The notes beneath the pieces are model-generated. The model was given only the letters and a program-made list of their open reading frames with translations, was not told the DNA's origin and made no database searches. Made by a program: the position numbers and the translations under genes. From a virus: a DNA stretch of 64,000 bases. This document shows, piece after piece, positions 705 through 47,280 of the stretch. The stretch spans positions 96,001 to 160,000 of IMG/VR virus record IMGVR_UViG_3300045988_142085, one strand, 5' to 3'. Position 1 is the stretch's first letter. Every line of letters begins with the position of its first letter.

Positions 705-1121
705 TCATAAAAAATTACTATTTTTAATTTTTTTTAACACATGATTAATTAATATAGTAACACGATTTTCCTCATCGAGCATATTAGCTACTCCTACTGT
801 TTCAATTTGAGAGTCACCGATAATTAATTTTTTAGAATCAGGATAATAATAATATACTTGATCTTTTTCTTCTGTCGAACAATAAAAGCACATTACTCCA
901 TATTCAGATGGAACATTTTCTTCTGGTGAAACATGATATCTTCTTTTAAAAGAAAAAACATATTTTTTATTTTTATTCTTTAATTTTACAGGACTAATAC
1001 TTTTATCGTCGACAAAATAATCTATAGGTCCATAACAACTAGGCTCATCTAATGTCTTAACAAAAGTATACTTCGTTACGCCAAATTTTTCTTTCAATTC
1101 TTCTAGTTTCTGATTAATCAT
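705..1121 (-). CDS. hypothetical protein (138 aa)
   Basis: ORF-track ORF, operon context. Confidence 0.5.
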   Translation of the reverse strand: MINQKLEELKEKFGVTKYTFVKTLDEPSCYGPIDYFVDDKSISPVKLKNKNKKYVFSFKRRYHVSPEENVPSEYGVMCFYCSTEEKDQVYYYYPDSKKLIIGDSQIETVGVANMLDEENRVTILINHVLKKIKNSNFL

Positions 1122-1133
1122 ATTTTATTTTCT

Positions 1134-1535
1134 TTATAGAATTTTAGAATAAGAAAAGTTATCTAACTTTTTCTTGAGCTTAATTCTATCCTCTAATGTA
1201 GTTATTAACATATTAACACAAAGATAAGCATAATGTTTATTAAAATAATCTTTTATTTGATCTTCATTAGGATAGCCTGGCCTGTCATCATTAATATAAA
1301 TATCTCTAAACTTTATAATATAAATATTATTTTGATAAGGTTTATGTATTAAAGTAACAGACACAGTTAATTCATAGTCAAAAGACTTGCCGTTTATAGG
1401 CTTATCTAATTTTTTAACAAAGCTAAAAATACAGTTAAGTTGGCAATCTAAACCAAGAGATTCAAAGATTATAAAATTATCTGTATTCATACAAAGCTCT
1501 TCTTTATTGCGATCAAATGAATAAGTTAACTTCAA
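1134..1535 (-). CDS. hypothetical protein (133 aa)
   Basis: ORF-track ORF, operon context. Confidence 0.5.
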   Translation of the reverse strand: MKLTYSFDRNKEELCMNTDNFIIFESLGLDCQLNCIFSFVKKLDKPINGKSFDYELTVSVTLIHKPYQNNIYIIKFRDIYINDDRPGYPNEDQIKDYFNKHYAYLCVNMLITTLEDRIKLKKKLDNFSYSKIL

Positions 1536-1650
1536 ACAGACGCCACCTTTCTTTATTTAACTTTCTATTATAACATAAATAGTCTTTTTTAGCAACAAAA
1601 CCTGCTATTATTTTAAATAAATATTTCTTCTATAAAGCGAACGTTCGTTC

Positions 1651-1812
1651 CTATTTTAAATCGCTCAGCATCCAGTTATACACTTTTTCGACTTGAAAAT
1701 GCTCGAGCTTGCGTAATTTTTTATCGGGATAATATCGATTCATATAATAGTTTAACTTATGAGTTACTTTATTTAAACGATATATCTCCGAAATCAATTC
1801 TTTTCTTTTCAT
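1651..1812 (-). CDS. small basic hypothetical protein (53 aa; MKRKELISEIYRLNKVTHKL...)
   Basis: hand-translated ORF below the track size cut-off; its ATG overlaps the stop of the upstream small ORF (TAATG). Confidence 0.3.
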   Translation of the reverse strand: MKRKELISEIYRLNKVTHKLNYYMNRYYPDKKLRKLEHFQVEKVYNWMLSDLK

Positions 1813-1937
1813 TATTTATTTTTTTTCTTTTTAATTTTCTGTTTTCTATCATGTTTTTTAACAAAACGTTCCCAATCTTTTTGCGATGTTTTATCTAGTT
1901 CTTCAAACATGGTTTTCCAGAAGTCTTGAGTGTCCAT
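1812..1937 (-). CDS. small Lys-rich hypothetical protein (41 aa)
   Basis: hand-translated; its ATG overlaps the stop of gene 1937..2269 (coupled TAATG arrangement). Confidence 0.3.
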   Translation of the reverse strand: MDTQDFWKTMFEELDKTSQKDWERFVKKHDRKQKIKKKKNK

Positions 1938-2269
1938 TAATAATACTCTCTATCGATAAAATACCAGCTACATTTTTCCAAAGATTCTTCTGTTAAATAA
2001 AGACAATATGCACCAAGGTTTTCAATTTGTTCGCCGTCTTCGAAGACTACCGTAATATTCTTAATATTAGACCATTTTCCGTCTTGGCTCCATTCATAGT
2101 CTGTTATTTTACATTGGCGCCCATCTAGATAATAAAAATCGAGATTTTCAAATTCAAAATCATCGATATCGTAATCATCGAAATTATACATTTTATCGTC
2201 AAGACAATATCTTTCATTGATAATTTTGTCGAAAATATCCTGATATTTTAAAATTAAATCGTTGTTCAT
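1937..2269 (-). CDS. hypothetical protein (110 aa)
   Basis: ORF track. Confidence 0.5.
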   Translation of the reverse strand: MNNDLILKYQDIFDKIINERYCLDDKMYNFDDYDIDDFEFENLDFYYLDGRQCKITDYEWSQDGKWSNIKNITVVFEDGEQIENLGAYCLYLTEESLEKCSWYFIDREYY

Positions 2270-2279
2270 ATTTTACTCC

Positions 2280-2741
2280 TTATAAATTATCTAAATCTTC
2301 TAATAAGCAATGAATTTCTTTAAAATAATATTCCAGCTCCATTGCGCTATAATCATTTTCTTTAGTGTATACTCCATATTCTTTCCGAATAGGAATAACA
2401 TCTTTTACTTCTTGACTGAGATCTTTATAATTGAACTTATAATCGAAGTTCCGCAAGAAGCAGTTGAGCATTTGTAAATCAGAATCGAAGTCGCCAGAAT
2501 CTAAATCATATAGCATCTGGTAAAACATATTTAATTTAAATAAAATGCCGTCTTTATAAATAATTTTCTTATCTTTAAATTCAACGACTAATTCTTTTTT
2601 ATGGCGATTATATCCAAGTTTATTGTTAATCAAAGCCAAATCTTTAAAAGATTGATTTCTATCGGTAATTATACAATCGATATTGCCAAGAATTTCGTCA
2701 ATCTTTTTCATGTTTTTATAAGTCATAGTCATATCCTTCAT
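2280..2741 (-). CDS. hypothetical protein (153 aa)
   Basis: ORF track. Confidence 0.5.
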   Translation of the reverse strand: MKDMTMTYKNMKKIDEILGNIDCIITDRNQSFKDLALINNKLGYNRHKKELVVEFKDKKIIYKDGILFKLNMFYQMLYDLDSGDFDSDLQMLNCFLRNFDYKFNYKDLSQEVKDVIPIRKEYGVYTKENDYSAMELEYYFKEIHCLLEDLDNL

Positions 2742-2746
2742 TCTTA

Positions 2747-3244
2747 CTATCTTAATTCTTCTAATAGTTTTTGAATATTGTTTAATCGATCTTGTAAACT
2801 ATAAATATACTGTTCTAGACAATCAATATTGTCATCGTTGTTGCTAGAATATCCTTTCCTTATATTCATATAACTATATAGATCATCATGTAAATCATCT
2901 ATATCAGAGTCAGTATATTCAATATAATTTTGGATTATTCTTAATCCTTTATTTTCTTTAGCTAAGTTTTCTATTAAATATCTTAAATAAACTAATTTGA
3001 ATATAACATCTGTAAATCTATCAGAAGAACCACCATATTCATAAGTCTTATAAATAAATGAAATTGTTTCATCTTCTGGATTAAATTTTACTAACCAAGA
3101 ATTGAAAGTAGTTAATGAATAAAGATGGCCAATAGCGCCATTTAATTCATTAGTAATTTTATCGTTAATTTTCGTTACGTTATTAATCTTTTCATAGAAA
3201 TCAAGATTATCTTTTAATATTCCATAATCCATAATGGGCGCCAA
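2747..3244 (-). CDS. hypothetical protein (165 aa)
   Basis: ORF track. Confidence 0.5.
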   Translation of the reverse strand: MAPIMDYGILKDNLDFYEKINNVTKINDKITNELNGAIGHLYSLTTFNSWLVKFNPEDETISFIYKTYEYGGSSDRFTDVIFKLVYLRYLIENLAKENKGLRIIQNYIEYTDSDIDDLHDDLYSYMNIRKGYSSNNDDNIDCLEQYIYSLQDRLNNIQKLLEELR

Positions 3245-3254
3245 CTTTCTTTAT

Positions 3255-3539
3255 TTAAAACTCTAATAATAATTCACTAATAGGATACATAATAAATGAT
3301 ATATCTTTATAATTAAAATATTCATTTAAACATTCAATTTTAATTTCTCTATTAGATAAGTCTATACTATATTCTTTTTCTTCTTCTTCGTATCTTAATG
3401 TAAACTTAAAACAATAATTATCTTCTTCTTTAAAAGAAGCAATATAATATGAACTAATCATATCTTTAAAGATTATTTGTTTTAAATAACGATATATTTC
3501 CTTCGCTTCGTCGTACGATCTAAATTCAAGTGTTATCAT
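3255..3539 (-). CDS. hypothetical protein (94 aa)
   Basis: ORF track. Confidence 0.45.
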   Translation of the reverse strand: MITLEFRSYDEAKEIYRYLKQIIFKDMISSYYIASFKEEDNYCFKFTLRYEEEEKEYSIDLSNREIKIECLNEYFNYKDISFIMYPISELLLEF

Positions 3540-3855
3540 ATTTTTCTCTTCTAAAATCTTCTAACCATTTTCTTATATCGCATTCTTCAATGGTTCTTTG
3601 TAATACATCTGAAGTACGATAATATGGATCTCTAAAATCCATTCCAATATTTTCTAAATAAACTAACGTCTTAGCTTCTATTATCGCTATATAATATGTT
3701 CTTTTAGTTAATATACATTCGCAATAAGCTGTTTGTATTAAATAAATAAAATTATTATTTTCTGAAAAAACATCGTAATGAAAATGACCGTGATCATAAT
3801 GATAGCGTACTAATACAAAATCCTTATCTTTATTTAATTCGAATATTTTACTCAT
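3526..3855 (-). CDS. hypothetical protein (109 aa)
   Basis: ORF track; overlaps the downstream gene by 14 nt. Confidence 0.45.
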   Translation of the reverse strand: MSKIFELNKDKDFVLVRYHYDHGHFHYDVFSENNNFIYLIQTAYCECILTKRTYYIAIIEAKTLVYLENIGMDFRDPYYRTSDVLQRTIEECDIRKWLEDFRREKYDNT

Positions 3856-3893
3856 AATATTATCTTTTTAACGTAATTTTATTTTGATCCACA

Positions 3894-4166
3894 TTATTTA
3901 AATTTTATATAGTCTTTCTTTCTAATATCTTCCCAGAGATATTCATACATTTTCTCGACAGCATTTGTAGTATATTTCATTCTTTCTATTGATTCTTCTA
4001 TTTCTTTTGGAACAGGCATATTGAGATTATATTCGACGGCAATAGTCTTCTTGTCATAATAATATATTAAATGAGCGAATAGATAGTTAAATATATCGGA
4101 CTTAAATTTTAAATATAAACAAAAGCTTTTAATAAAATATGATTCTCTTTTCCATGTTCTATCCAT
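3894..4166 (-). CDS. hypothetical protein (90 aa)
   Basis: ORF track. Confidence 0.45.
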   Translation of the reverse strand: MDRTWKRESYFIKSFCLYLKFKSDIFNYLFAHLIYYYDKKTIAVEYNLNMPVPKEIEESIERMKYTTNAVEKMYEYLWEDIRKKDYIKFK

Positions 4167-4210
4167 TTGAGATATATGTATTTCACAGTTGCTGTCTTTA
4201 TATAAATAAT

Positions 4211-4227
4211 CGCTCGCTATCGCTCGC
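4211..4227. repeat. CGCTCGCTatCGCTCGCC iteron-like motif (extra copy of the family clustered at 8.0-8.4 kb)
   Basis: GC-rich doubled 8-mer in an AT-rich intergenic gap; same motif at 8025, 8115, 8249, 8384. Confidence 0.5.
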
Positions 4228-4270
4228 CGCCCCTTTCATTATTTAACAATAATATTATTCTAAGACCATA

Positions 4271-4630
4271 TTATCCACCATGGCACGCTAAAACATGTCT
4301 TTTTTTAATAATATTAACATCTTTTAAATTAGTTTTCCATAATTTTTTAGCCGTCACATCTTTAGTTAATTTGCCAAATTCATATGTACTCATTAGTGGC
4401 CACAAATTATCTTCGCCAAATTCATTTAACAAATCTTTTTCCATATAAAAAACATATCCGTCTTTTATTAATATAGCATAAAATGTAATAAAACCATTTT
4501 TATCTTTTTTGCGAACTAATTCAGTATCGGTAGTAAATTTATGAGCAGGAAGTCTCATAATTTCTTTTTTCATTCTTCTATAAATTCTATTTTCTTCTGA
4601 AGAAAATAAATCTAATATAGTATCAAACAT
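4271..4630 (-). CDS. hypothetical protein (start moved to internal Met, MFDTILDLF...)
   Basis: ORF track; the internal ATG overlaps the stop of 4623..4958 by 8 nt, typical coupling. Confidence 0.4.
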   Translation of the reverse strand: MFDTILDLFSSEENRIYRRMKKEIMRLPAHKFTTDTELVRKKDKNGFITFYAILIKDGYVFYMEKDLLNEFGEDNLWPLMSTYEFGKLTKDVTAKKLWKTNLKDVNIIKKRHVLACHGG

Positions 4631-4958
4631 AATTCGTTTCCTCGTTAATAAATGTATAACAGAAAATATCACCAATCATATCTTTGTATTCTTCTTTGAA
4701 TTCATCATAATCTTCAAATTTTACTTCGATGATTTCATAAAGATCTTTATTATTTTTTTGATAATAAATATATAATGTTAATTGATGTTCATTATTTTTG
4801 TCGAATTCGATGCGTTCAATTACTTCTAATTTAACCATTATTTTATTAAGATATAGAAGCATACTACCGCAATTACATTGAGATATCAATACTTCTAATT
4901 TTGATATACGATCATATTTTTCTTTGTCGAATTTTTCTTTACAATATAAATGTTTCAT
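4623..4958 (-). CDS. hypothetical protein (111 aa)
   Basis: ORF track. Confidence 0.45.
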   Translation of the reverse strand: MKHLYCKEKFDKEKYDRISKLEVLISQCNCGSMLLYLNKIMVKLEVIERIEFDKNNEHQLTLYIYYQKNNKDLYEIIEVKFEDYDEFKEEYKDMIGDIFCYTFINEETNYV

Positions 4959-4974
4959 ATGCGTCCTTTCTTCA

Positions 4975-5196
4975 TTAATTTTTTAGTTCAGATTTTCTAA
5001 CATTACCATCTAAATCGACTACAAATCCTTTTGGAATAATCCATTGATCTTTTGGAGCAATCGGTAAAATACCGATTTCGTCGATATATTTAAACTCATC
5101 TTCGGTTAATCCTTTACCGGTCATAATTTGATAATGAGAAATTAATTTTCCGCCCGGTAATATTTTATTTTTAATTACATGGTTATAGTTTTTCAT
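4975..5196 (-). CDS. hypothetical protein (73 aa)
   Basis: ORF track; first gene of the leftward operon, followed by an AT-rich promoter region. Confidence 0.45.
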   Translation of the reverse strand: MKNYNHVIKNKILPGGKLISHYQIMTGKGLTEDEFKYIDEIGILPIAPKDQWIIPKGFVVDLDGNVRKSELKN

Positions 5197-6380
5197 TTTG
5201 TTTACTCCTTTATGATATAATAATATAATTAATTATGTTTGAATTTAAAATAATAAAATCGAGCCGCTATTACACATCTCTTTATTTAACTCTTAATATA
5301 TATTTAATTATAACTACCTATATAATAATAATATAATACTCTATACATTTATTATACTATGATTAATTTACTATTATACTAGTAATATTTATATAATTGT
5401 TTATGTTATATGTTATTATAATAATATATTAGCGTAACTGGTCGGCTTTAGCCGAACTGTTGCTGTCAATTATATTAAATAAGGTTTGAAGTATTGTAGC
5501 TAGTTTATTTTAAAAACAATACGAAAACAAATGAATTAGGTAAGTAGAGATATGTTTCAATATATTAATTAAAATATTAAAATTAACCAAAAACACTTGA
5601 AATAGAACGGTTGTAGAGTGTTTCTGCCCCTCTTTGTCTCAAAAAATAGAAAACACTCAAAAATATCAATAATAAGCAGGGTTTGAAGTATTATAGTAGA
5701 TTAAATGCTTAAAATATTAAAATGAGTAAAAAATATGCAATTAAGGTAGATGTGAGAGTGTTATATATATAGTCTAAAACTTAAAATAGCCTAATATTGC
5801 TTTAAAAACGGTGTGAGATAAGTGTTTCCTACCCTCCTCCCCCACCCAGCAAGCAATACTACACTTGCAGGATGTTGTCGTCGGGGCGCTCGTGAGGCGA
5901 CAGCGGGCTTTATTATTTTTTTTATTTATTATATATATAGTATATATAGCCTAAGTTATATAATAGTATAAGCTACGCAATAATTAAAGGCGGTGCCTCT
6001 AAGACTCTTGTTATTTAAAAGGCATTAATCTGTGTTATAGTATTATATAGACAGCCTTAATATTATATTATATATATGTTAAATAATAATATATCAGTCT
6101 ATATACGAGGCGCCAAGTCCTCTCTTAACACACGGGAATTGGCTCAATCAGGTGACGGTTATTTAAGAAATAATCTATACTTAATAATTATACAACAAAT
6201 GTATAATCCATTTAGGTTATCCTATTATATACTATAGATATAATAAATTAATACTAAGATTAAAAAAGGTTAGATAAAATCTACATTTTTAGCGACGATA
6301 TTTTTTGATAAAAAAATACCAAAAAATATCACGAATTTCTATTATACAAAAATAATGTATAAATAATTATTTTAATATTT

Positions 6381-6505
6381 TTAACCCGCTACACAACCAT
6401 AGATTGTAATATACCGGTGTAACAAGTTACACCGCTCCGCAATTTTTAATATAAAATAATATAACCAAGGCCCCCTGAAATAAATTCAGCAGGGTCTTTT
6501 CTTTA
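6381..6505 (+). ncRNA. candidate small-RNA unit 1: motif TTAACCCGC-N-TGTAATATA, perfect hairpin GGTGTAAC/GTTACACC, then intrinsic terminator
   Basis: conserved 9-mer plus -10-like TGTAATATA shared with units 2 and 3; downstream hairpin 6473-6494 followed by a T-run. Confidence 0.35.
6473..6505 (+). terminator. intrinsic terminator (CCCTGAA..TTCAGCAGGG plus TCTTTTCTTT)
   Basis: hairpin followed by T-rich tract on the plus strand. Confidence 0.45.
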
Positions 6506-6569
6506 TATTATTATATATATAATATAATAAACACTAACAATTAAAATAAAAAAATTATTTTTATTTTTT

Positions 6570-6682
6570 TTAACCCGCGGTGCTAACTTAACATGTAATA
6601 TACCGGTGAACGACAGTTCACCGCTTCCACTCACTTAAATATATAATAATCCTCAGAATAAAATCTGAGGATATTTTTTTTG
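6570..6682 (+). ncRNA. candidate small-RNA unit 2: same promoter-like motif, hairpin GGTGAAC/GTTCACC, terminator CCTCAGA-loop-TCTGAGG plus T8
   Basis: motif identity with unit 1; covarying hairpin; clean rho-independent terminator 6651-6682. Confidence 0.4.
6651..6682 (+). terminator. intrinsic terminator (7-bp GC-containing stem plus T8)
   Basis: perfect stem CCTCAGA/TCTGAGG, loop ATAAAA, then ATATTTTTTTT. Confidence 0.6.
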
Positions 6683-6689
6683 GAATTAA

Positions 6690-6786
6690 TTAACCCGCTT
6701 CGCTAATATACTACGTAATATACTAGTGGACGCAGTCCACTACTTCAGAACCTAAGCATCCTGACCTAACGGCCAGGATTTTTTCA
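6690..6786 (+). ncRNA. candidate small-RNA unit 3: same motif (CGTAATATA variant), hairpin AGTGGAC/GTCCACT, terminator ATCCTGacc..ggCCAGGAT plus T6
   Basis: motif identity; covarying hairpin; terminator 6758-6786. Confidence 0.35.
6758..6786 (+). terminator. intrinsic terminator
   Basis: stem ATCCTG.CC/GG.CAGGAT followed by TTTTTT. Confidence 0.5.
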
Positions 6787-7960
6787 TTATTAAGCATAAA
6801 CAAAGTTGGCCCATTTTAAAAATGCTCCAAACCCTTACTCACGTAATCTGCTGTGAAGATAAACAACTCGCAGAGGATCGTACACGAATAACCGTTTAAC
6901 GTATTCGGGCCTTAGCCCTCGATACTACTTTATATATAATATATATATAATTATTCTAATATTATTTAAAGATTTAAATAAGCGTCACTATTATTATCTA
7001 AATATAATAATTTATTTTAATATAATTAAAAAACCGTTCGCCTAAAATATTCGGTGTTCATTCTCTCTATCCATAACACCTAGTAAAAGAGGTAACAGTA
7101 TAACGCCGGAACCAGAGCAATAAAATTCCAGCTAACTGGTTAGAGCTTTCAAACTCTAACAACTTGGAATGATTAGTACTCGATAATAATTGTATCCTAA
7201 TAATTAATATTAATTATTATAAATTAATCTCGCACTAAGCAGAGCCTTCGTCACGAACTATAACACAGAAAATTGTAATTACGCTACGCTAATACAACCA
7301 GCCAACTTCGCTGCGCTATCTTTCTCTGGATCGGATCAAGACATTCTTTTATAATATATATAATTTAATAAAAGAATCAAAAGGGATTCGCCACCTAATA
7401 TAACCTTCGCCCCTAAATTAAATCCGGGGTCTCAGAACATATATTCCTTCGGAAATAGCCGGCGGCTCAAAATAATTGAATTATTTAAATCCAATTATAA
7501 TCACTGTTGCTCACCTAATTGAATAACTAGCAATAGTGTCCTATATAATATATATACTAATACTTAATTAATAATATACTTCATATATTATTATTAATAA
7601 CTAACATTACTTTTAAATAAAAAGTAATACAAAATACATATGGGGGGCGAAAAATATTCGAAATTTTATAACCTAAAGTTTCAGATTTTTCAGCCCGGAT
7701 TTTCGCTTTTATATATAGTACGACATAGTATACCGCTCACGGTCGTCCTCGCTAACGCTCGTTCCTTACCTACAGCTCAGTCGCAAGCTCCTTTCGCTTT
7801 CGGGATGCGTTTGCTATACGGCCCTCCGGGCCTCCATTATACTATACATATAGATAGCTTAAGGCAGGCGCTTTAATCGGTCGCTCCCGCTCCCTCTTCG
7901 CTTCTTTATCTAACCTATCTATATCCTTACGGATCGTAGCTAAAAGCTTAATACTAATAA

Positions 7961-8324
7961 CTTACTTCTCTTAATAAGAGAAGATAACAAGAGAACTTAA
8001 TATACTATATACATATATAATAAACGCTCGCTACCGCTCGCTTCTAATATAAATATAATATATATAATAATAAATACTTACTTTCTTAGGAAGAAAGATA
8101 ACAAAGAAGATATACGCTCGCTTCGCTCGCTCTTAATATAAATAATAAATACACACTTACTCTCTTAGAAAGAGAGTAACAGAGAACTCTAATAATAAAT
8201 AATAAACTGCTTACTTCTCTAAAGAGAAGATAACAAGAGACACATATACGGCTCGCTTATGCTCGCCTTGTTAAATAAATAAAATGAATATGCTTACTCT
8301 CTTAACAAGAGAGATAACAGAGAA
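7961..8324. repeat. array of 5 covarying hairpin repeats: CTTAC-[pyrimidine tract]-loop-[purine tract]-(G)ATAACA-[purine tract]
   Basis: copies at 7961-7994, 8077-8110, 8156-8186, 8210-8240, 8293-8324; flanks conserved, stems differ with compensatory changes (TTCTCTT/AAGAGAA, TTTCTT/AAGAAA, CTCTCTT/AAGAGAG ...), and the 3' purine tail covaries too. Confidence 0.7.
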
Positions 8325-8410
8325 TATTATAACGGCCGGCTCACGTGCGTTCGCACGGCCTACTATACAAAATAAGAGATCTACGCTCAGCTCGCATTCG
8401 CTCGCTTCGC
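8025..8410. repeat. CGCTCGCT-nn-CGCTCGC iteron-like motifs (4 copies) interleaved with the hairpin repeats
   Basis: copies at 8025-8043, 8115-8132, 8249-8267, 8384-8410; related CGCTC-rich tract at 7747-7765; GC-rich direct repeats in an AT-rich noncoding region. Confidence 0.55.
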
Positions 8411-8531
8411 TTATAGAGCGCTCGTGTGGCTTTATTAAGCAGTAACAACTTCACGCTATAAGTAATCATAGCCACCCAATTAAATATCATATACTGACGC
8501 ATATGATATTCAAAAAAAATAATTTTAGTAC

Positions 8532-8575
8532 ATACATATATATTGGATTAAAACCATACTCCAATATATATGTAT
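8532..8575. repeat. perfect 16-bp AT-rich inverted repeat (8532-8547 / 8560-8575) with a 12-nt spacer
   Basis: ATACATATATATTGGA ... TCCAATATATATGTAT, read directly. Confidence 0.7.
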
Positions 8576-8672
8576 ATATTAAATAAATTTTAAAAGAGCA
8601 AGCCGTCCTTTATATATACAGGACACCGCATCAAAAAAATATAGCTTTAGTCGGGAGCCATATTAATATTAT

Positions 8673-8745
8673 TTATTTAAATAAAAATAAGGTTTAGATA
8701 ACAGATGCGACCCACTCCCGTGTGCTTTTCCATTATCTAAACCTT
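8673..8745 (-). terminator. terminator of the rightward-encoded minus operon: 13-bp inverted repeat AAGGTTTAGATAA/TTATCTAAACCTT then a U-rich tract on the minus strand
   Basis: perfect 13-bp inverted repeat 8689-8701 / 8733-8745 just downstream of the stop of 8752..9234; the loop is long (31 nt), hence moderate confidence. Confidence 0.45.
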
Positions 8746-8751
8746 TAATAA

Positions 8752-12469: not shown

Positions 12470-13531
12470 TTAATCCAATACTGTAAGCATCAAAGCCACA
12501 GATTTGATTTCTTTTCCTCCTTTCTCGAACTGATTAAAGCACATATTATCCACATGTACTCTAACCTTAACAGATCCGTAAAGCTTTGTAATCATTTCAC
12601 GGATTTCGCCTGAAAGAGATAGACCGCACAATTGTACATAGCCTTCACCTTTTAAGCTTTTGACATATAGACCATCAGATGGAGCTTTGCCATCTAAACC
12701 TTTACAAATGTGAAGGTCTTTATTTTTGGCAACAGAACCATCCATTAATATAAACTCTTCATAGCGAGTTACTTCGCCATTAGAATTTTCATTTCGATAA
12801 CCTTGAGCCATCGCAATATTTTTAGCAGCATTAGCAAAGTCTGCAGATTTTACTAACAACTGTTTTTTAGGACGGTCTAATTCCATACCGTCTAATGGAG
12901 TAACAATGATATACAGAGATCTGTTCTCTCTAATGAATAACTCATATGACCCATTTACTGTAGGGTCACAGAATAAATATTCATCAGAGCTAAGGCCCTT
13001 ATTGAAGAAGACGTATTCGCCTTCTTCTTCGTCAAGACCTGTTGCAGGACGATACGCATCTGCAGCGCCCTTAAATCTTGGAGTCACTTCTACTATACGA
13101 AGAGACTCTAGTTGCTTCTCTTCACTAGCATGTTCCCATGCATAGTGAACAAGGTCTTTTTTAAGGCATACACTGCCATAAATAAAACCTTGTTTACGAG
13201 CTTCTTCATAAACATTTGTTTCGTCTGGATTAATGCCCATGCCCCAGATAAGCATGTTGCGAACATAATTCGCAATCTTGGACATTGGAGAGCTCATTAG
13301 CTCTCCTTTAATGTTCTCATTGGAGGACTTTCTAATGTCCTCAATGAGTTCATTTACATAACCAGTAAGGCCTTTAGCGTTACTGGTTTCTTTTTTTAGA
13401 TTGATGCCGTATGCATTTACAACATCTTTAAGTTGCTCAAGAGCTACTTGAGCAACCTCATTTTGAATTTTGTATAATCCAGAAGAAATACCTAAACTTT
13501 TCACTTGTTGGTTATTTTTTACTAATTTCAT
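12470..13531 (-). CDS. hypothetical protein (353 aa), GC-richer block
   Basis: ORF track; overlaps the upstream gene by 4 nt (ATGA); no motif recognised. Confidence 0.55.
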   Translation of the reverse strand: MKLVKNNQQVKSLGISSGLYKIQNEVAQVALEQLKDVVNAYGINLKKETSNAKGLTGYVNELIEDIRKSSNENIKGELMSSPMSKIANYVRNMLIWGMGINPDETNVYEEARKQGFIYGSVCLKKDLVHYAWEHASEEKQLESLRIVEVTPRFKGAADAYRPATGLDEEEGEYVFFNKGLSSDEYLFCDPTVNGSYELFIRENRSLYIIVTPLDGMELDRPKKQLLVKSADFANAAKNIAMAQGYRNENSNGEVTRYEEFILMDGSVAKNKDLHICKGLDGKAPSDGLYVKSLKGEGYVQLCGLSLSGEIREMITKLYGSVKVRVHVDNMCFNQFEKGGKEIKSVALMLTVLD

Positions 13532-14928
13532 TTTGTTTCTCCTTTTAGGTACTCGCGACCAATTTTTACTGCGTCGCTTAATGTTAAAGTACCTTCTTCT
13601 AAATTAAAATCAATACATGCGTATTGTTTTCTACGCATAGAGTGAATACCTTTAAGCATATCGCCCAAAGGATCGAAAGCTGTGCCAGGACCAGCTTTGG
13701 CCATATCAATGATATGACCAATGATACTTGGCGCGATAATTAATACGTCGACCAAGTAATTTAATATGGATTTATCATCCATATTAGAAGCCAAGAAATC
13801 TTCATACATGGCTTTAACTTTATCTGTACAACATTCATCTTCATGAATATCGACATTAGCCATATAATGACGTTGATATTCTGGCTTGGATACATCCACT
13901 TTGAGATCAAGATTCTTGCGAATAATGTCGCAAGACTGATGGAACACGATTGTTCCTCGTGTTCCAACTATTTCAAGAACGAGGGAAGATTTGTTTACAT
14001 ATTTTCCCACATTCATGTCGGTCAAGCCAGACACAAATACGTTCTCGATAAATTCAGCATAACTAGCTGCTTCAAGTAAGCCTTGAGCAGCTACCTCGCT
14101 TTTAATGCCTACCATATAATGGACCTTGCCATCATATAGATCAGCATCAGAACCGACCAACCACAGATGTTTATCTGTGTCATGATCGGAACCGCCTTGA
14201 GACATTTTAAAGTACTCAGAGCCTGTGCAGATGAAACCAGAAATCGGAATCATCTTCAATTCGTCAGCTGCAGCATTAACTAAACCTTGAGCTAACTTTT
14301 CAAGGTTTTTTACCACGCCTTTGGACGCTAAATATTTCATGGCGTCCTTAACGTATTCGTCATATCTGTTATTTAACAGATTAACGAAATGCTGTGCAGG
14401 TAAAATCACAGCGTTGTAAGATTCTCCAGCATGTGGGAATCTTATACCTTCAGCCTTAATACCAAGACCAAGGTTTAGACAAAGTTCCATAAGTTCTTTG
14501 TCATTTTTTGCAGCAATAAGTTCTGCTTTAATTTCGTCAGAAACTTCATTGCCTACAACATCAATGGCACGATATCCGCACTTTCTTAAAGTACGGATAA
14601 ACTTAGTATTAGAAACACCGATTTGGTGTTCCTCTACTAAGCGTGTCAGAGAAAATTTTAATATAGGATCTACCTCTGCAGTAGCCATAAAGCTGCCACA
14701 GTTAGAGTCCCACTTAGAGTCCTCAAACATCTTGTTTAAGGCCTCAACTATATTCTTCACGAAAGATATCCCAATTTGGGAATCTTCTTGAAGTATTTGA
14801 GGCATAAGAGCTACAGCTCTATCTACCTCAGATCCATGAAAGTTGCCATTGAAATGAGCATTAATTTTTGCTGCCACTTCTTTTTTAGCCACTTGAGCGA
14901 TGTACGCTCTATTTAACTTTTTATTCAT
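13528..14928 (-). CDS. hypothetical protein (466 aa), Cys-containing and enzyme-like; function not identifiable from sequence
   Basis: ORF track; GGAGAAAA ribosome-binding site; visibly GC-richer than the phage background. Confidence 0.55.
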   Translation of the reverse strand: MNKKLNRAYIAQVAKKEVAAKINAHFNGNFHGSEVDRAVALMPQILQEDSQIGISFVKNIVEALNKMFEDSKWDSNCGSFMATAEVDPILKFSLTRLVEEHQIGVSNTKFIRTLRKCGYRAIDVVGNEVSDEIKAELIAAKNDKELMELCLNLGLGIKAEGIRFPHAGESYNAVILPAQHFVNLLNNRYDEYVKDAMKYLASKGVVKNLEKLAQGLVNAAADELKMIPISGFICTGSEYFKMSQGGSDHDTDKHLWLVGSDADLYDGKVHYMVGIKSEVAAQGLLEAASYAEFIENVFVSGLTDMNVGKYVNKSSLVLEIVGTRGTIVFHQSCDIIRKNLDLKVDVSKPEYQRHYMANVDIHEDECCTDKVKAMYEDFLASNMDDKSILNYLVDVLIIAPSIIGHIIDMAKAGPGTAFDPLGDMLKGIHSMRRKQYACIDFNLEEGTLTLSDAVKIGREYLKGETK

Positions 14929-14958
14929 TATTTTTTCTCCTCTTTCTGAACAAAGCTC

Positions 14959-16068
14959 CTACACAACATATTGGCAATGTTGCGTGGAGATCCTCCCACG
15001 AGTCTCGTGGAAGAATTGTAAAATACGCCACTCCCATGCTTTAGGAGATGGCGCCAATTCAGGTGTACGTTTCATGCCATTCTCATCAGTAATTGCTAAA
15101 AGCTTACCAGAAGGATTACCAAAGATGGCAACATTATAATTACCTTTCTTATAATAATCACTAAAATGTTCGGCATGGATCACACCATATTCCATACCGT
15201 AAACCATAACTTTGTCCATGGCCAAGAAGGCTTGTTTCCAAGCTTCCATAGACTTAGCATGGAGTGGCTGAGAACCAACCTTAATTGATAAGGCTGTAAT
15301 TCTCATTTGATGGTAGCTAGGTTTACTAGCCGGCATGCCATATGTATCACAAAACCACTCGTGGTTGTGATACGCCATGCCATCATAGCTATCACCAAAC
15401 TCGGTCGAATCGAGCTTAGGTACGATTGCAATGCAATCTTTGTTTAAGTCGATTCCAATAGTTTGTGATGGAGCTGCAAATAGCCCAATATAAGTGTTGA
15501 GCTTTTGCGCTTTACCAGGCGTTAGTGCAATGGCATGGAAGCCTTGTGCACATAACGCTTGTACACGAGCCTCGAACTTTTCACGTTCGGACTCGAATAC
15601 CATTACTACCATCAATTGCCGAATCATTGATGGTGATAATTGTAGTGCATTTAAATAACGAAGCAATGGATGTTTCTTCGTCATTTCAAGCATTGCAATA
15701 ACATCTTGAACTTCTCTTAAGTGAGAAAAGTCCAATTTCGCTATCCCTGGGATATAAGCATTCGTGTCAACGAATACTTTATTTTCCCATCTTACACCAT
15801 CGGATGGGCCATCTAAACAGATGACACCAGTAGCAATACTGGCACGAATTGTATCCCCATGCTCGAGAATACCAGAAACTGGAAGACTGGAAATGCTAGC
15901 ATGCGCTAATGGCACACGAGCCTTTCCCTTCAACTCAAACGTGAAGCTAGACACATTTGCAGTTTCAAACTGCTGTAATGCGCCTAGATCTTCCATATGG
16001 TTATGGAAGACTTGTTTTACTGCCTCTTGAGTAGCACGTTGTTTTCTTAGTGATTTAATTTTATCCAT
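14959..16068 (-). CDS. hypothetical protein (369 aa), GC-richer block
   Basis: ORF track; AGGAG ribosome-binding site. Confidence 0.55.
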   Translation of the reverse strand: MDKIKSLRKQRATQEAVKQVFHNHMEDLGALQQFETANVSSFTFELKGKARVPLAHASISSLPVSGILEHGDTIRASIATGVICLDGPSDGVRWENKVFVDTNAYIPGIAKLDFSHLREVQDVIAMLEMTKKHPLLRYLNALQLSPSMIRQLMVVMVFESEREKFEARVQALCAQGFHAIALTPGKAQKLNTYIGLFAAPSQTIGIDLNKDCIAIVPKLDSTEFGDSYDGMAYHNHEWFCDTYGMPASKPSYHQMRITALSIKVGSQPLHAKSMEAWKQAFLAMDKVMVYGMEYGVIHAEHFSDYYKKGNYNVAIFGNPSGKLLAITDENGMKRTPELAPSPKAWEWRILQFFHETRGRISTQHCQYVV

Positions 16069-21410: not shown

Positions 21411-21454
21411 AAGAATATCCTTTATTAATTATTATTAGTATAAGATACTGTTAT

Positions 21455-21489
21455 ATTACAGAAAAAATCCCCGCACATAGTACGGGGAT
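21455..21489 (-). terminator. intrinsic terminator (ATCCCCG-loop-CGGGGAT plus U6)
   Basis: 7-bp stem just after the stop of 21499..24603, followed by an A-run on the plus strand (U-run on minus). Confidence 0.6.
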
Positions 21490-30279: not shown

Positions 30280-30321
30280 GCTATAATCCTTTCATTAGTC
30301 GATATACATTATATTACAACA

Positions 30322-41124: not shown

Positions 41125-41159
41125 TTATATTACAAAGAAAGCCTGTCTTATGACAGGCT
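41125..41159 (-). terminator. terminator hairpin AGCCTGTC-TTAT-GACAGGCT overlapping the dnaE stop
   Basis: 8-bp perfect stem with the stop codon in the loop; U-rich tract follows on the minus strand. Confidence 0.45.
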
Positions 41160-43100
41160 AACTTTCTTAACAATCATCTTAGAATCAGATTCTTTTTTGC
41201 CAGATAAATAGACTGTTTCGCCATACTTAATATAAGGCAAATTATTTAAATAAATAGAACTGAATACGATCAAATCAATTTCGACGCCGCCACCAACATC
41301 GCCTTTACAAAATGCCATAAGATTGCCGGACTTATCTTTTCGTTCATCGACTTTGGTGATTCTAACTTTAACGTTTTCTACTTCTGTTTTATCTTCCATA
41401 GAAAACCATTCTGGTGTATATGTTACCGGGCAATTTAATGTGTCCATTTCAAAGCTCATAATAAGTTCCTTTCCATAATTATCATTATTTAAACGTTCAT
41501 CTTTATCTTTTCTTAAATCATAAAACTGATTCATTAATTTTAAACGATTACTTTCGATATTAGAGAAAGCACCCGACTTAATTAAAGATGAACCAACACG
41601 TTTATTAAACGCTTTTTTACCAATTTTATTCATAGCATCTTCTAAAGAAGTGTAAGGTCGATGTTCAATTATGGCAGGTATGGAAGATAGACCCACGCCC
41701 TTAATGGACCCAAGACCAAATAAGATAGTGTTTCCATTAGGAGTAAAATCGAGATTTGATACATTAATGTCCGGAACTTCAACGTCGATCCCTTCCTTTC
41801 TAACCAATGGAATATAACGAACTAAATCTTCTAAAGATTGCATCGATAAATATGCAGCAAAGAATTCTACTGGATGATACAATTTAAGCCAAGTAGTAAG
41901 CATACTGGTAAATGAGTAGGCTACAGCATGAGATTTGTTAAATAAATAATTTGAATATCCTTGTATTGTTTCAAAATAATCTTCCATTTCTTTCTCAGTA
42001 TAACCATTAGCAAGAGCACCTTTAATTTCAGGACCATATTTACCTTTAGGGTCATACCAAGGAGCTTTATCGTCTTGTTCCCAACCTTCTGGACCTTCAC
42101 AATTTTTCTTGCCATAAATATGACAACGTTTAAGCATAGGCATTTTATCTGCTTTTTTCTTGGCCAGAATTTTTCTAGAAAGTGAATCTGCTTGGTTATC
42201 ATCAAAGCCAGAAACTTGTTTAGAGATCATCATAATCTGCTCTTGATACGGGATTACAGAATATGTATTACTTAAAATATTATCGATACCGCGTAAAGGA
42301 GCAGTTAATTCCTCTTTACCTTGTTTACGCTTAGCATATTGATGGTGCATATTTGCACTTAATGGGCCCGGTCTCAAAAGTGCCGTGGTTGCCGCAATAT
42401 CGTCGAAGCAAGTTGGCTTCATCTCTTTTAAATAATCTTTAAACATATCAGATTCTAATTGGAACACGCAATCTGATTTAGCTTGTGCCAATAATTTATA
42501 TAATTTTTTATCTTCGATATCGAAGCTATCATATAACCATTGAACATCTTTATTTAAATGTCTTAATGTTGTTTCTATTATGGATAATGTTTTAAGACCG
42601 AGGATGTCGAGTTTTGCTGTACCTAGTTCTTCACATTCAGTACCTGTAAATAACGTAATTGTTACGCCGTCAGCATCAGTACGTGTCGGAAAATAATCAT
42701 CGACACGACAAGGCATTGCTAGAATACCAGAAGCATGAACACCGAAGTTACGTTTAAGACCTTCGAATGCACGAGCCAATCTAAATAATTCTTTATTGTC
42801 GACTTCTAATTTCTGCCATTTAGTATATAAAGATTTTTCTGTTTCGTTGCCATCTTTTAATGCATCATAATGTTTAAACTTTGGTTGAGGAGGTACGACA
42901 TCTTTAAAGTCGTCAATAATTTTAGATAATGCATTCATTTTATCGAATGGAATTTTAAGTGCGCGACCAATATCTTTTAGGCCAGATTTAACGCCCATTT
43001 GAGAATATGTACCAATATGCGCTACGTTACTTTCGCCGTATAAATCTTTAATATGTTCAATAACTTTGTCTCGACCAAAGTAGCTAAAATCTGAATCTAT
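41148..43100 (-). CDS. dnaE: DNA polymerase III alpha (DnaE-like) exon 2; true 5' end at 43100, upstream of the ORF-track Met
   Basis: Aligns to the E. coli DnaE palm and fingers (FQLES, RPGP, NKSHA motifs). The in-frame stretch upstream of the ORF-track ATG reads IDSDFSYFGRDKVIEHIKDLYG, matching E. coli [23 protein letters not shown]. A stop codon lies just beyond 43103. Confidence 0.75.
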   Translation of the reverse strand: MDSDFSYFGRDKVIEHIKDLYGESNVAHIGTYSQMGVKSGLKDIGRALKIPFDKMNALSKIIDDFKDVVPPQPKFKHYDALKDGNETEKSLYTKWQKLEVDNKELFRLARAFEGLKRNFGVHASGILAMPCRVDDYFPTRTDADGVTITLFTGTECEELGTAKLDILGLKTLSIIETTLRHLNKDVQWLYDSFDIEDKKLYKLLAQAKSDCVFQLESDMFKDYLKEMKPTCFDDIAATTALLRPGPLSANMHHQYAKRKQGKEELTAPLRGIDNILSNTYSVIPYQEQIMMISKQVSGFDDNQADSLSRKILAKKKADKMPMLKRCHIYGKKNCEGPEGWEQDDKAPWYDPKGKYGPEIKGALANGYTEKEMEDYFETIQGYSNYLFNKSHAVAYSFTSMLTTWLKLYHPVEFFAAYLSMQSLEDLVRYIPLVRKEGIDVEVPDINVSNLDFTPNGNTILFGLGSIKGVGLSSIPAIIEHRPYTSLEDAMNKIGKKAFNKRVGSSLIKSGAFSNIESNRLKLMNQFYDLRKDKDERLNNDNYGKELIMSFEMDTLNCPVTYTPEWFSMEDKTEVENVKVRITKVDERKDKSGNLMAFCKGDVGGGVEIDLIVFSSIYLNNLPYIKYGETVYLSGKKESDSKMIVKKVSLS

Positions 43101-44294
43101 CTTTTACACCCTAGCTTTCGCTATATTTATTAAGGAATAGACCATATCTTCACCATATTTTTATTTTTAAAATAAAAACTTAGGTTGCTCCATTTCGGGC
43201 TTATCACCCTACGTCCCTTTGGACTGGCCGTTGAACGTTCCCCTATTCGAGGCTTCGCTGCTGATTTTCCAATCTTGTCTTTTTTTAGCATATCACACTT
43301 TTGCTTATTTCATCAATATGTTGTAGCAAGACAAGCTCTAAGGATGTTCCAGCAATTTAGAGCTCTTTAAACTTTAGATTTCTCTAAAGCACGACTATTG
43401 TTTAAATTGCATAAATCTAAATATCTTTGATATTTTCTATTCAAATATATCGTTGCATTTTTATATAATAGATCTAAAATTTTTTGTGTTTTTAAGTTTC
43501 CACCAAATTCTAAAGACATAACTTCTTGATAATCTTTTCTTTTATAATATTTATTAGCAGAAAAGCCAAGTTTTTCTTCTATATAATTATTAACAAAATC
43601 AAGAAATTTTTTAGTTGAAACTAATTTAAAAGCATAACTGTTACTTAATTCTGTGTTGGTGTGAGCAATAGAACCATTCCCATCAAAATATCCTCGTATA
43701 AAATCTGATACATAATTTTCTAATAAAGATATGTCTGGAGGAATTAAAATATTTGTTTTGTGTTCTACTAAGTTATATTTTAATAAATCATTAAACATAA
43801 TTTCAGAATAATATATTATTCTACTATAGCTATTTTTAGAATAAGAGTTTTTAGTTGCTTCATATGTTTTAATGGGATGATTACTCTCTAAACTTTTATT
43901 TAATTTTTCTAAATGAGTATAATCACAAGTAGACAATGTAAGACCTACTTTGTATGAATTATTATTTTTAGAAATATATCCATCAGCCATTAAAAAACCT
44001 AACCAATATGCTTTTTCTTCTGTGTCTATTTTATTGAAAAATTTTTCATTAAAATGATAGCGTGAATTAGCTTCTCTATGAGATCTAGGCGTTAAATTTT
44101 TCTTAATAAAGTATGAAACTTTTCCAGTACTAATACCTAATTCTTTTGCTATATATGGTGATCCATGTTTTTTATTATATAAATCTACAATTTTATTTTG
44201 AATTTCTTTTGATAATTTTGACATATATGTTACCTCATATTTATATTGATTTATAAATATTATAACATATATAATTATCTTATGCAATCATATA
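43101..44294 (-). mobile_element. group I intron (about 1194 nt) in dnaE carrying a LAGLIDADG homing endonuclease gene
   Basis: Exon 1 ends in U (GAU, Asp of LPD) and the intron ends in G, the classic group I boundaries. Joining the exons restores PD-IDSDF in frame. The 3' 266 nt is GC-richer and hairpin-rich (ribozyme-core-like). The nuclease has its own ribosome-binding site. Confidence 0.6.
43367..44224 (-). CDS. LAGLIDADG homing endonuclease (double-motif, about 286 aa) with N-terminal HTH
   Basis: motifs WLGFLMADGYIS and IRGYFDGNGSI; GAGGT ribosome-binding site before the Met at 44224; lies between the dnaE exons. Confidence 0.7.
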   Translation of the reverse strand: MSKLSKEIQNKIVDLYNKKHGSPYIAKELGISTGKVSYFIKKNLTPRSHREANSRYHFNEKFFNKIDTEEKAYWLGFLMADGYISKNNNSYKVGLTLSTCDYTHLEKLNKSLESNHPIKTYEATKNSYSKNSYSRIIYYSEIMFNDLLKYNLVEHKTNILIPPDISLLENYVSDFIRGYFDGNGSIAHTNTELSNSYAFKLVSTKKFLDFVNNYIEEKLGFSANKYYKRKDYQEVMSLEFGGNLKTQKILDLLYKNATIYLNRKYQRYLDLCNLNNSRALEKSKV

Positions 44295-45686
44295 ATCTGG
44301 CAAGCCTGTTCTGTCGATAGTCAAAAAACGACCGAACAGTAAATCATATTTAATAGGATCGATATTTTTAGTGATGCCAATACACCATAATACTAAACTA
44401 CCTGCAGCGCTCCCGCGTCCAGGACCAGTCATTACACCATTATTATCGGCCCAGTTAATATATTCACGAACGATAAGCATATAATCAGCGAAATCTTTAT
44501 AGTTAATAATGTTAAGTTCATACGCTAAACGTTGTTCATATCGTCTAATATCGTTAGCGATATAATCATATCTTTTTGCTAACTCATATAAACCTTTGTA
44601 AGCTAGTTCACGCAATTTACGTTTAGTATTTTTAACGCCAGGAAGTTTAGGCATTAATGGTACATCACTGCCTAATTTATATTCGCCGACTTTATTTGCG
44701 ATTTCTTGAGTATTATGCATTGCTTCTAAATATAAAGCATATTTTTCACGAGCAACACTTACTTCAGTTTCAGACGTATTAATTAAATATTTAAATCCGT
44801 CTTGCATTTCTTCTTCGTTTTTAAGCCAGAAGTTATGATCGTATTTCATACGGTTAGGATTATAAATATCGGTGCCAGTGCCGACACATACTAATACATC
44901 ATGATCTTTATTATCCTCTTTGAGGACATAATGTACATCGCTTGTCGCAACGAGTTTAATATTATGCTTCGTCGACATTGTTAAATAAAAATTATTTACT
45001 TTGACTTGGTCGTCGAATGCATTAGGTTGAACTTCGAGATAGAAGTCGTCACCGAAAATATCTTTATATTCTAAGATAAGTTCTTCGGCTTTTTCTAAAT
45101 CGTCTTTACGAACACGACTTGCTACCATATTCGCAACACATGCTGTCGTACAAATAACGCCTTCGCTATATTTACGAAGCATCGGCATATCGAACAAAAA
45201 GCGCCCGTTGTATGTACATACTTTAGCAGATTCACTTTGTAATTTAATTAAATTATTTAACCCTGTTTGATTTTTAGCTAATAAGATTAAATGATATTGT
45301 CTTGTGTCGTACATATGTTTTTCTGCACGAGCCTTAATATCTTTAATGCCTTTAACGCCTTTTTTGCCGGACGCTAAATCTTCAGCTTCTTTTTCTGTTA
45401 AGTCTCCGGCTTCTTTCGCCTTCAAAGCCGCATCGGCCCAGCGTTCTTCAACAGGTTTAGATAATGAAAGAGTGTCCCATGTTTGATATCCTTCATAACC
45501 TAAGATAGGCTTAACACCTTGTTTTTTACATTCTTGTAAAAATTCATAAATACCGCCCATATGATTATGGTCTGTGATGGCTAAACTTTCCATACCGAGT
45601 TCTTTAGCACGGCTAACTAACTTCGGTATATGACAATAGCCATCTAAAAAGCTATATGATGTATGTACATGTAAATGCGTAAACAT
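44295..45686 (-). CDS. dnaE: DNA polymerase III alpha (DnaE-like) exon 1: PHP domain and N-terminal palm up to GPGRGSAAGSLV...GLPD
   Basis: MFTHLHVHTSYSFLDG PHP motif; GPGRGSAAGSLVLWCIGIT..DP..LLFGRFL matches the DnaE signature; the ORF stops 4 codons into the intron (YMIA*). Confidence 0.75.
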
Positions 45687-45748
45687 TTTATTATTCCTCC
45701 TTATAAAAAATATAATTGTTTATCAACAAATATATAATATTATGTATA

Positions 45749-46987: not shown

Positions 46988-47280
46988 TTCTGGAAACCTT
47001 CCTTTCGGAGTATTTTTCGTCTTGCCAATGTCGTGGATGGTGCATGTGTTTCTCTGTTGTCTATACAGGACGTTAGTATAGTTTCTTGATTGGCACTCAC
47101 AGAGCTTCAGACTGACGAGCACATCTAAAGGTGTGTCTTTAACCTTTTCCATAACGTAGTTCATATCTGCAGCATATCTTTCGATAGCAGCAATCACTAA
47201 GGCTAGAAACCTATTATCAAGCAAATACAAATAAGAAATATAATATATATTCGCCCACTTTTTCGTATTTTTATTTATAA
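46988..47280 (-). ncRNA. putative omega-RNA scaffold (plus guide) of the IscB element; coincides with the ORF-track N-terminal extension
   Basis: about 230 nt of markedly GC-richer, stem-forming sequence immediately upstream of and abutting the iscB start, the canonical omega-RNA position; exact ends unknown. Confidence 0.4.

Follow-up and report, generated by a model that had tools for sequence, protein, structure and literature searches.

Three Tandem Promoter-Hairpin-Terminator Units beside an OTKONC RNA Gene of an Uncultured Phage: Candidate Genes for Short Non-Coding RNAs

Units in the Window

The DNA described here is a stretch of 64,000 nucleotides (nt) from the IMG/VR virus record IMGVR_UViG_3300045988_142085 (positions 96,001 to 160,000), hereafter the window, which is part of an uncultured phage of low GC content (~30%). 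At 6381-6786 it contains three tandem units on the plus strand, each of which consists of a promoter-like box, a hairpin, and an intrinsic terminator. Unit 1 occupies 6381-6504, unit 2 6570-6681, and unit 3 6690-6784. These units had been noticed in a sequence-only reading of the window, in which they were proposed as small RNA genes, and inspection of the window bore out what was said there of the sequence, with the corrections given below.

The promoter-like region of unit 1 (6381-6413) comprises TTAACCCGC at 6381-6389, a variable spacer of 15 nt followed by T, and GTAATATA at 6406-6413; an AT-rich tract lies upstream of it. The corresponding elements are located at 6570-6578 and 6595-6602 in unit 2 (region 6570-6602) and at 6690-6698 and 6715-6722 in unit 3 (region 6690-6722). 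The base between the spacer and GTAATATA is T, T, and C in units 1, 2, and 3, respectively. TTAACCCGC is indeed identical in the three units, and the 64 kilobases (kb) contain only these three plus-strand copies of it, at 6381, 6570, and 6690. The spacer, earlier given as 15-16 nt, measures 15 nt in all three.

A perfect hairpin with a stem of 8 base pairs (bp) is present in every unit, 1 nt past GTAATATA. In unit 1 (6415-6434) it reads CGGTGTAA-CAAG-TTACACCG, or alternatively forms 9 bp around an AA centre, and CT is next. The hairpins of unit 2 (6604-6623, CGGTGAAC-GACA-GTTCACCG) and unit 3 (6724-6742, TAGTGGAC-GCA-GTCCACTA) are likewise perfect. The pairing is thus as first described, and each stem is one pair longer than was written. 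In unit 3, two basal pairs are swapped on both arms as compared to units 1 and 2 (CG/GC to TA/AT), and its stem carries an additional A:T to G:C change which is specific to the window.

A linker of 15-34 nt leads from the hairpin to the terminator. The terminator of unit 1 (6469-6504) has a stem-loop at 6469-6496, with one G-U pair and one bulge, and the T-run TTTTCTTT at 6497-6504. That of unit 2 (6649-6681) is formed by ATCCTCAGA-ATAAAA-TCTGAGGAT at 6649-6672, an A, and eight T at 6674-6681. In unit 3 (6758-6784), ATCCTGACCTAACGGCCAGGAT at 6758-6779 is joined to a T-run at 6779-6784. A GC-rich stem-loop and then a T-run on the transcribed strand, the mark of an intrinsic terminator, are found in all three units.

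The units are real and far beyond chance. The composite pattern TTAAC-N16-21-GTAATATA-NNN-GTG has three matches in the 64 kb against 0.01 expected, and three were reached in none of 100 shuffles. The predicted RNAs of 64-90 nt, taken from the base after GTAATATA through the T-run, fold into two hairpins with an open linker, with z scores of -4.3, -6.8, and -3.5 relative to dinucleotide shuffles. Small open reading frames (ORFs) overlapping the units were looked for as genes of small peptides or type I toxins, and none is credible. No plus-strand ORFs or further convincing plus-strand units were seen in the window; the earlier claim that the units are the only ones on this strand could be tested only in part.

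Conservation in Related Phages

In related phages, where the sequence-only reading had advised a search for the motif, arrays of units were found in ~29 IMG/VR contigs belonging to three lineages. The lineage of the window comprises 15 contigs with an array of 2-3 units in the same order, found by an IMG/VR motif scan and by searches with flanking proteins. The second lineage, reached with the protein of 353 amino acids (aa) encoded at 12470-13531, includes 12 contigs with 2-3 units. The same protein search gave two further loci with three units each, and these two contigs make up the third lineage. The DNA around the arrays is only ~70-85% identical to the window. The number of units is altered by inter-unit fusion, some genomes having two units and some a remnant of a third.

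Three features are invariant across the units: GTAATATA, unchanged in 66 of 66 distinct unit cores, a perfect hairpin that starts 0-1 nt later, and CT behind the hairpin. The 9-mer TTAACCCGC, noted earlier as identical in each unit, is not among them, as it is replaced in relatives by TTACCGCG, TTAACGCAA, TTAACT, or ATAACT; the promoter box as first proposed is only partly right. Its distance to TAATAT, counted from TTAAC, is 20 nt in the lineage of the window and 16 nt in the second lineage, and it is irregular in the third. Spacers, linkers, and terminator stems are freely replaced among relatives. Selection acts on GTAATATA, the hairpin, and the CT behind it; on the linker and the terminator it acts through their presence and not through their sequence.

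The turnover of the linkers bears on the possibility that the units are trans-acting base-pairing small RNAs, whose C/U-rich linker (e.g., CUUCC or CUCCC) would pair with the Shine-Dalgarno sequence of phage or host mRNAs. The architecture would suit this function, since a 5′ hairpin is followed by a single-stranded linker rich in C, U, and A and by a terminator, and CUYC stands directly behind the hairpin in all units. However, the linkers vary more among relatives than any other part of the units, in their sequence as well as in their length (~10 to >50 nt). Their best duplexes with the translation-start regions of 68 genes of the window are no better than those of shuffled linkers, and pairing with the RNA of the neighbouring OTKONC gene (described below) is not significant and no better than with shuffles. 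Neither a conserved seed nor targets above chance emerged from this comparison with phage genes, and a base-pairing role of this kind is very improbable. The earlier proposal of small RNA genes thus stands for units that are real, non-random, and conserved and that have plus-strand terminators, and it does not extend to a base-pairing function, for which the seed is lacking and the targets are at chance level.

Terminators and Direction of Transcription

The terminators indicate the strand that is transcribed. Among relatives, 41 distinct terminator stems have been collected, each with a plus-strand T-run at its 3′ side. Of their 461 base pairs, 50 are G-U (11%), which pair on the plus strand only and correspond to C-A on the other strand. 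The occurrence of G-U pairs on this strand alone, together with the conserved stem and T-run, argues that the terminators are genuine plus-sense RNA structures under selection; their description as clean intrinsic terminators in the sequence-only reading is upheld. Since three successive terminators are 120-190 nt apart, transcripts should start within each interval.

Pairing and Loops of the Hairpin

The hairpin is the most strictly kept part of the units. In 35 distinct cores, all 280 of 280 cells are paired, and four of the eight pairs are changed on both sides. Over all lineages, 22 hairpin variants with 187 base pairs contain Watson-Crick pairs only and no G-U, and no near-perfect copy with even one mismatch was seen among the units examined. 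Perfect pairing is kept in every variant, so that hairpins unconserved in related genomes, which had been named beforehand as an outcome that would speak against small RNA genes, are not observed. Double-sided changes affect six stem positions. For example, CGGTG/CACCG is replaced by TAGTG/CACTA, CGATG/CATCG, or TCGTTG/CAACGA, GAAC/GTTC gives way to GGAC/GTCC and TGAC/GTCA, and paired insertions of T:A or A:T occur. The C:G pair that closes the loop is invariant. The loops are mostly GAA, GCA, and GTA, and GACA, ACA, TAC, and AA are also found. The hairpin sequence of unit 1 is identical in the first unit of 14 related loci.

An operator for a dimeric protein on double-stranded DNA has been considered and rejected as unlikely. 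Within one genome the outer conserved half-sites are spaced by 9, 10, or 11 bp and the inner ones by 2-4 bp, whereas a dimer on duplex DNA would call for a fixed spacing; an intrastrand hairpin is favored. The loops are purine-rich and differ between the strands, which points to the plus strand or to a plus-sense molecule. Of the earlier claim that compensatory changes argue for selection on structure and against a protein operator, the second half is supported. As to the first half, the changes do not single out RNA as the selected molecule: G-U pairs are absent and the stem abuts GTAATATA. Perfect palindromes can also stay perfect via template switching in replication, a correction which makes the apparently compensatory changes weaker proof of selection than they look. 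These changes do not separate RNA from DNA as the molecule under selection.

Likeness to the Hairpin Promoters of Phage N4

The palindrome could be a DNA hairpin or cruciform within the promoter itself, as in phage N4, or a supercoil-sensing gate on a sigma-type promoter, with the short RNAs as a secondary matter. This is a possibility of rather low probability. N4 has three early promoters which are recognized as extruded hairpins by the virion RNA polymerase (PMC4496689, PMC3715699). The published rules ask for a short stem in which some positions are conserved and others are constrained in pairing only, for a loop of 3 nt that has G at its 5′ and A at its 3′ side and is closed by a C:G pair, and for conserved flanking bases (PMC4496689). 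The units follow these rules in their tandem elements, three in number, and in stem, loop, and flanks (PMC4496689). As in the N4 promoters P1-P3, the stem is short and perfect, its variable positions are kept in pairing only, and a G-N-A loop, here mostly GAA, GCA, or GTA (or GACA), is closed by an invariant C:G between conserved flanks. The stems are Watson-Crick only (0 wobble pairs in 187), unlike the terminators, and abut the conserved 8-mer GTAATATA.

Several features depart from N4. The units add a sigma-type -10-like box and an intrinsic terminator, and their stems are 8-9 bp long as compared to 5-7 bp in P1-P3. The plus-strand terminators require plus-sense transcripts, and the GNA loop is then on the non-template strand, the opposite of N4. 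The stem, loop, and pairing are of the N4 type. For the plus-sense transcripts, however, the stable GNA hairpin is not that of the template strand, and no plus-strand genes follow the units. A variant of this explanation takes the plus strand as template, so that transcription would run leftward, as for all genes, toward the cluster of small ORFs at 5196-265. Furthermore, GTAATATA is also present upstream of three genes without a hairpin, and a sigma-like protein is encoded in the window. A search of the available sequence did not reveal a giant virion RNA polymerase, the largest ORF of the window having 1322 aa and no hits. Searches of the large ORFs for a phage RNA polymerase gave no Pfam, PHROG, or PDB hits in these 64 kb of a ~236 kb genome, and the DFDGD motif is absent from the window and the loci.

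The 18-mer of the unit 1 hairpin, GGTGTAACAAGTTACACC, recurs upstream of genes in an unrelated viral contig of 82.7 kb and 52% GC (IMGVR_UViG_3300035150_000037, L207), which adds some weight to a DNA-level role. The exact 18-mer is found there four times, and a fifth copy has a TT centre. The five copies of GGTGTAAC(AA/TT)GTTACACC are all within 7 kb (965-7650). Every copy sits directly at the stop codon of one gene, with 8-29 nt between it and the GGAG ribosome-binding site of the next gene and 19-40 nt between it and the ATG. No proteins are shared between this contig and the window. Its own affinity to N4 was considered and is not established, one ATPase resembling those of N4-like phages and the other proteins pointing to unrelated siphophages, which takes from the weight of the recurrence. 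The latter may represent convergence on a common binding partner, or chance.

It is thus a tentative suggestion that the most constrained element of the units acts at the DNA level, in the manner of N4. A more specific form, to which a still smaller probability is given, is that the start-site palindrome is an extrudable DNA hairpin needed or sensed by the transcription machinery. The units would then represent an N4-like, structure-dependent promoter class outside the N4 family, fused to the GTAATATA box and making short RNAs beside OTKONC. If this were true, promoters that depend on a hairpin would exist beyond the N4-like phages.

The Promoter-Like Box

The 8-mer GTAATATA is not enriched overall in the window (8 copies versus 9 expected). 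Its extended form TGTAATATA occurs in five exact copies in the 64 kb, all five of them intergenic. Three of these lie outside the array, on the minus strand at 21452-21460, 30310-30318, and 41126-41134, 30-47 nt upstream of minus-strand genes and in the orientation of the genes, one of which encodes a tail protein. The copy at the tail-protein gene, TTTAGA-17-TAATAT, is kept in 22 of 41 relatives despite differing downstream flanks. These three sites are probably a phage promoter box, and we infer from the sequence pattern that GTAATATA, with its TAATAT core, is a working promoter element in this phage. Other genes of the window carry TGnTATAAT boxes (e.g., at 1567, 48978, and 53197).

TAATAT is invariant, and the -35-like TTAAC is found 16 nt or 20 nt away or at an irregular distance, as compared to the sigma-70 spacing of 16-18 bp; units of the second lineage read TTAACT/ATAACT-16-TAATAT. 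The sequence-only reading had recommended a comparison with the phage sigma factor. This sigma-like protein (49010-49840) shows a weak region-4 similarity, which is below curated cut-offs, and the promoter specificity is not derivable from the protein; the box may be read by it or by the host sigma. In the promoters of some phage-encoded polymerases the motif abuts the transcription start (+1). If GTAATATA abutted +1 in the same way, the RNA would begin exactly at the hairpin.

In the third unit of L012 and L014 and in L003, L219, and L226, the spacer between TTAAC and GTAATATA holds a strong palindrome of its own, e.g., CCGTGCAC-TT-GTGCACGG, CGATAT-TAAC-ATATCG, and CGTGTC-AAA-GACACG.

The Units as Probable Genes for Short Non-Coding RNAs

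On the sequence evidence, the favored reading, held with a confidence somewhat above even, is that the units are autonomous plus-strand genes for short non-coding RNAs which form a conserved locus with OTKONC. The predicted RNAs measure ~55-116 nt overall. A promoter with GTAATATA as its only universal element would fire, and transcription would start at or just inside the abutting perfect hairpin. The polymerase would then cross a linker unconstrained in sequence or length and would stop at the intrinsic terminator. RNAs of this type would be made from 2-3 slightly different tandem copies.

The constraint on GTAATATA, the hairpin, and CT, in combination with a free linker, suggests that the active part is a start-site hairpin module and that there is no base-pairing seed. 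In the 2-3 ordered paralogues the hairpin core is constrained, the linker is free, and the terminator is required, a pattern which fits a structured RNA acting via its 5′ hairpin. The RNAs would most likely be structured 5′-hairpin RNAs, in which the hairpin may serve as a protein-binding or decoy module, or else stabilized RNAs. Alternatively, a cis role tied to OTKONC is a possibility, by way of an adjacent, probably shared terminator, protection from read-through, or antisense pairing.

Some observations do not sit easily with genes for short RNAs. None of the 187 hairpin pairs is G-U or mismatched, as compared to 11% G-U in the terminators of the same units. For an RNA stem such freedom from wobble is less typical than for a DNA palindrome or cruciform, or for a palindrome that is corrected at replication. 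The distance of the -35-like TTAAC box is not constant, being 16 nt, 20 nt, or irregular. Pairing begins 0-1 nt past GTAATATA, and a +1 of the sigma-70 type (~7 nt past TAATAT, with T at -1 and G at +1) falls inside the 5′ arm. Such a start would give an RNA without the outer pairs, which nevertheless covary; a start ~7 nt downstream of the -10 box is thus not compatible with the proposed RNA. A look-up in Logan or metatranscriptomes via the sole overlapping ORF found nothing on record.

The units fall within a known kind, namely, phage small non-coding transcription units. As short RNA genes, they would represent a family of non-coding transcription units not described before, in a widespread group of uncultured phages of ~230 kb. 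A wobble-free hairpin that touches a promoter box poses the question of an RNA hairpin versus a DNA hairpin. An Rfam 15 covariance search of 6381-6786 with E up to 10 returned only spurious sub-threshold matches and no family for the units. The literature on OTKONC and on the TATATTAC motif yielded nothing informative.

The OTKONC Gene and the Non-Coding Island

On the minus strand, the array is faced by an OTKONC RNA gene (Rfam RF03053) at 6792-6962, a full-length match with 170.3 bits against a gathering score of 141.4 and E ~1e-29. At its 5′ end the Rfam model overlaps with a TAATAT-type box. OTKONC shares the phage group and the non-coding island with the units and is always adjacent to the array, but it is an RNA of another kind, encoded on the other strand, and its Rfam model covers 6792-6962 only. 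A gap of 7 nt separates the terminator of unit 3 from the 3′ end of this convergent gene. In every array with enough flanking sequence, and in all three lineages, a few bases lie between the end of the last unit and the 3′ end of OTKONC. From this proximity, the terminator is probably shared by both. By its position the array appears functionally tied to the convergent OTKONC gene, and this orphan Rfam motif gains a constant genomic partner at its 3′ end, that is, a convergent array, in what would be a two-component locus.

The same layout could be that of a transcriptional insulator or cis-antisense device. The three convergent modules would halt, or collide with, minus-strand read-through that comes from OTKONC (and from genes upstream of it) into the small genes at 5196-265, and the RNAs would pair with the read-through RNA, in a manner similar to the OOP RNA of phage lambda. 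OOP, an antisense RNA of 77 nt, overlaps cII and has a promoter and a terminator of its own. The units are similar to OOP as short autonomous promoter-to-terminator units which oppose neighbouring phage genes. Unlike OOP, which is single and overlaps the coding cII, the units come as 2-3 tandem paralogues, lie in non-coding DNA, and have an invariant start-site hairpin; any overlap is at most with the 3′ end of a further non-coding RNA. An insulator is nonetheless compatible with the convergent arrangement and the terminator so near to the OTKONC 3′ end, both constant in three lineages, and with the place of the array between two minus-strand gene blocks in a non-coding island of 3.5 kb. Unconserved linkers would also be permitted, because the target of a cis-antisense RNA is the opposite strand and linker turnover is tolerated. 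Conversely, it leaves unexplained the strict conservation of hairpin sequence and pairing and the ordered upkeep of 2-3 distinct hairpin types across lineages. The minus-strand transcript across the array is only presumed, and for the downstream operon a separate promoter-like site is present at 5249-5220. This explanation is considered unlikely.

Another class of phage small RNAs to which short RNA genes of this form may be compared are the RNA anti-CRISPRs (Racrs, or solitary repeat units), which are defined by mimicry of the host CRISPR repeat (PMC10651486). Racrs are likewise small non-coding phage RNAs with their own promoter, a short hairpin as conserved core, and no seed (PMC10651486). 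Unlike Racrs, the units have no known matching host CRISPR repeat. A scan of genome contigs with GGTGAACN{3,4}GTTCACC for the host or its CRISPR arrays gave, among the matches listed, scattered single sites with at most two per locus and no arrays, the pattern being too unspecific.

The island which houses the units (5197-8751) is a gene-free, AT-rich region of 3.5 kb between two minus-strand gene blocks, in a genome that is elsewhere dense in minus-strand ORFs. It is syntenic in relatives, with 70-85% identity. It also contains further GC-rich islands and terminator-like hairpins on the minus strand (7167-7128, 5846-5810, and 8632-8596), and these suggest that it may carry more small RNA genes. 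At 7958-8330, a second hairpin repeat, CTTACTYTCTTA..AGAGARGATAACARAGAA, is present in five copies, whose arms differ yet are complementary; it is interleaved with GC-rich CGCTCGCTTCGCTCGCT boxes and is also repeated in related loci. Another two-copy unit is formed by GGTTTGAAGTATTRTAG (5484-5500 and 5680-5696), which is followed ~120 nt on by AACGGT..GAG.GTGTTTC.. and a C-rich tract.

An AT-rich non-coding island of 3.5 kb with several repeat families also raises the idea of a replication origin or priming site, where the short transcripts would open or prime an AT-rich origin, as at T7 or T4. Promoters beside AT-rich DNA are typical of phage origins. However, efficient terminators directly follow each promoter, the site shows neither a switch of the gene strand nor a skew inflection, and no initiator-binding repeats are associated with the units. 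A role as origin is the most remote of the explanations considered.

The Phage Genome

In the window, all ORFs of at least 150 aa that do not overlap a larger ORF are on the minus strand. The recognizable genes encode a split DnaE-like polymerase, a RecJ-like nuclease, HNH endonucleases, tail and virion proteins, and the weak sigma-70-like protein. The ENA contig ERZ27263288 k119_70580 (236,270 nt) encodes the 160-aa protein of the window exactly, and several related IMG/VR contigs measure 228-236 kb. In a search at the nucleotide level, no cultured phage matched the 3.5 kb island, and the identity of the DnaE-like polymerase to known phages is at most 33%; this phage is therefore only distantly related to known ones. 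We take the ~230 kb phage group to come from human-associated, probably oral samples, in view of the sample identifiers and the Rfam entry.

The DnaE-like DNA polymerase is split into ORFs at 44280-45686 and 41148-42998 on the minus strand, which are parted by a 306-aa ORF and a non-coding stretch of 368 nt. An HNH endonuclease ORF (45749-47230, minus strand) lies just upstream. No Rfam intron match was found at the split polymerase; the region 41148-47230 may be an intron or homing-element insertion.

The window is a mosaic. The array and OTKONC resemble one lineage (in comparison with loci L001-L039), whereas the genes at ~12.4-16 kb (12470-16068) have counterparts with 76-85% protein identity in another lineage and are missing from the first set of loci.

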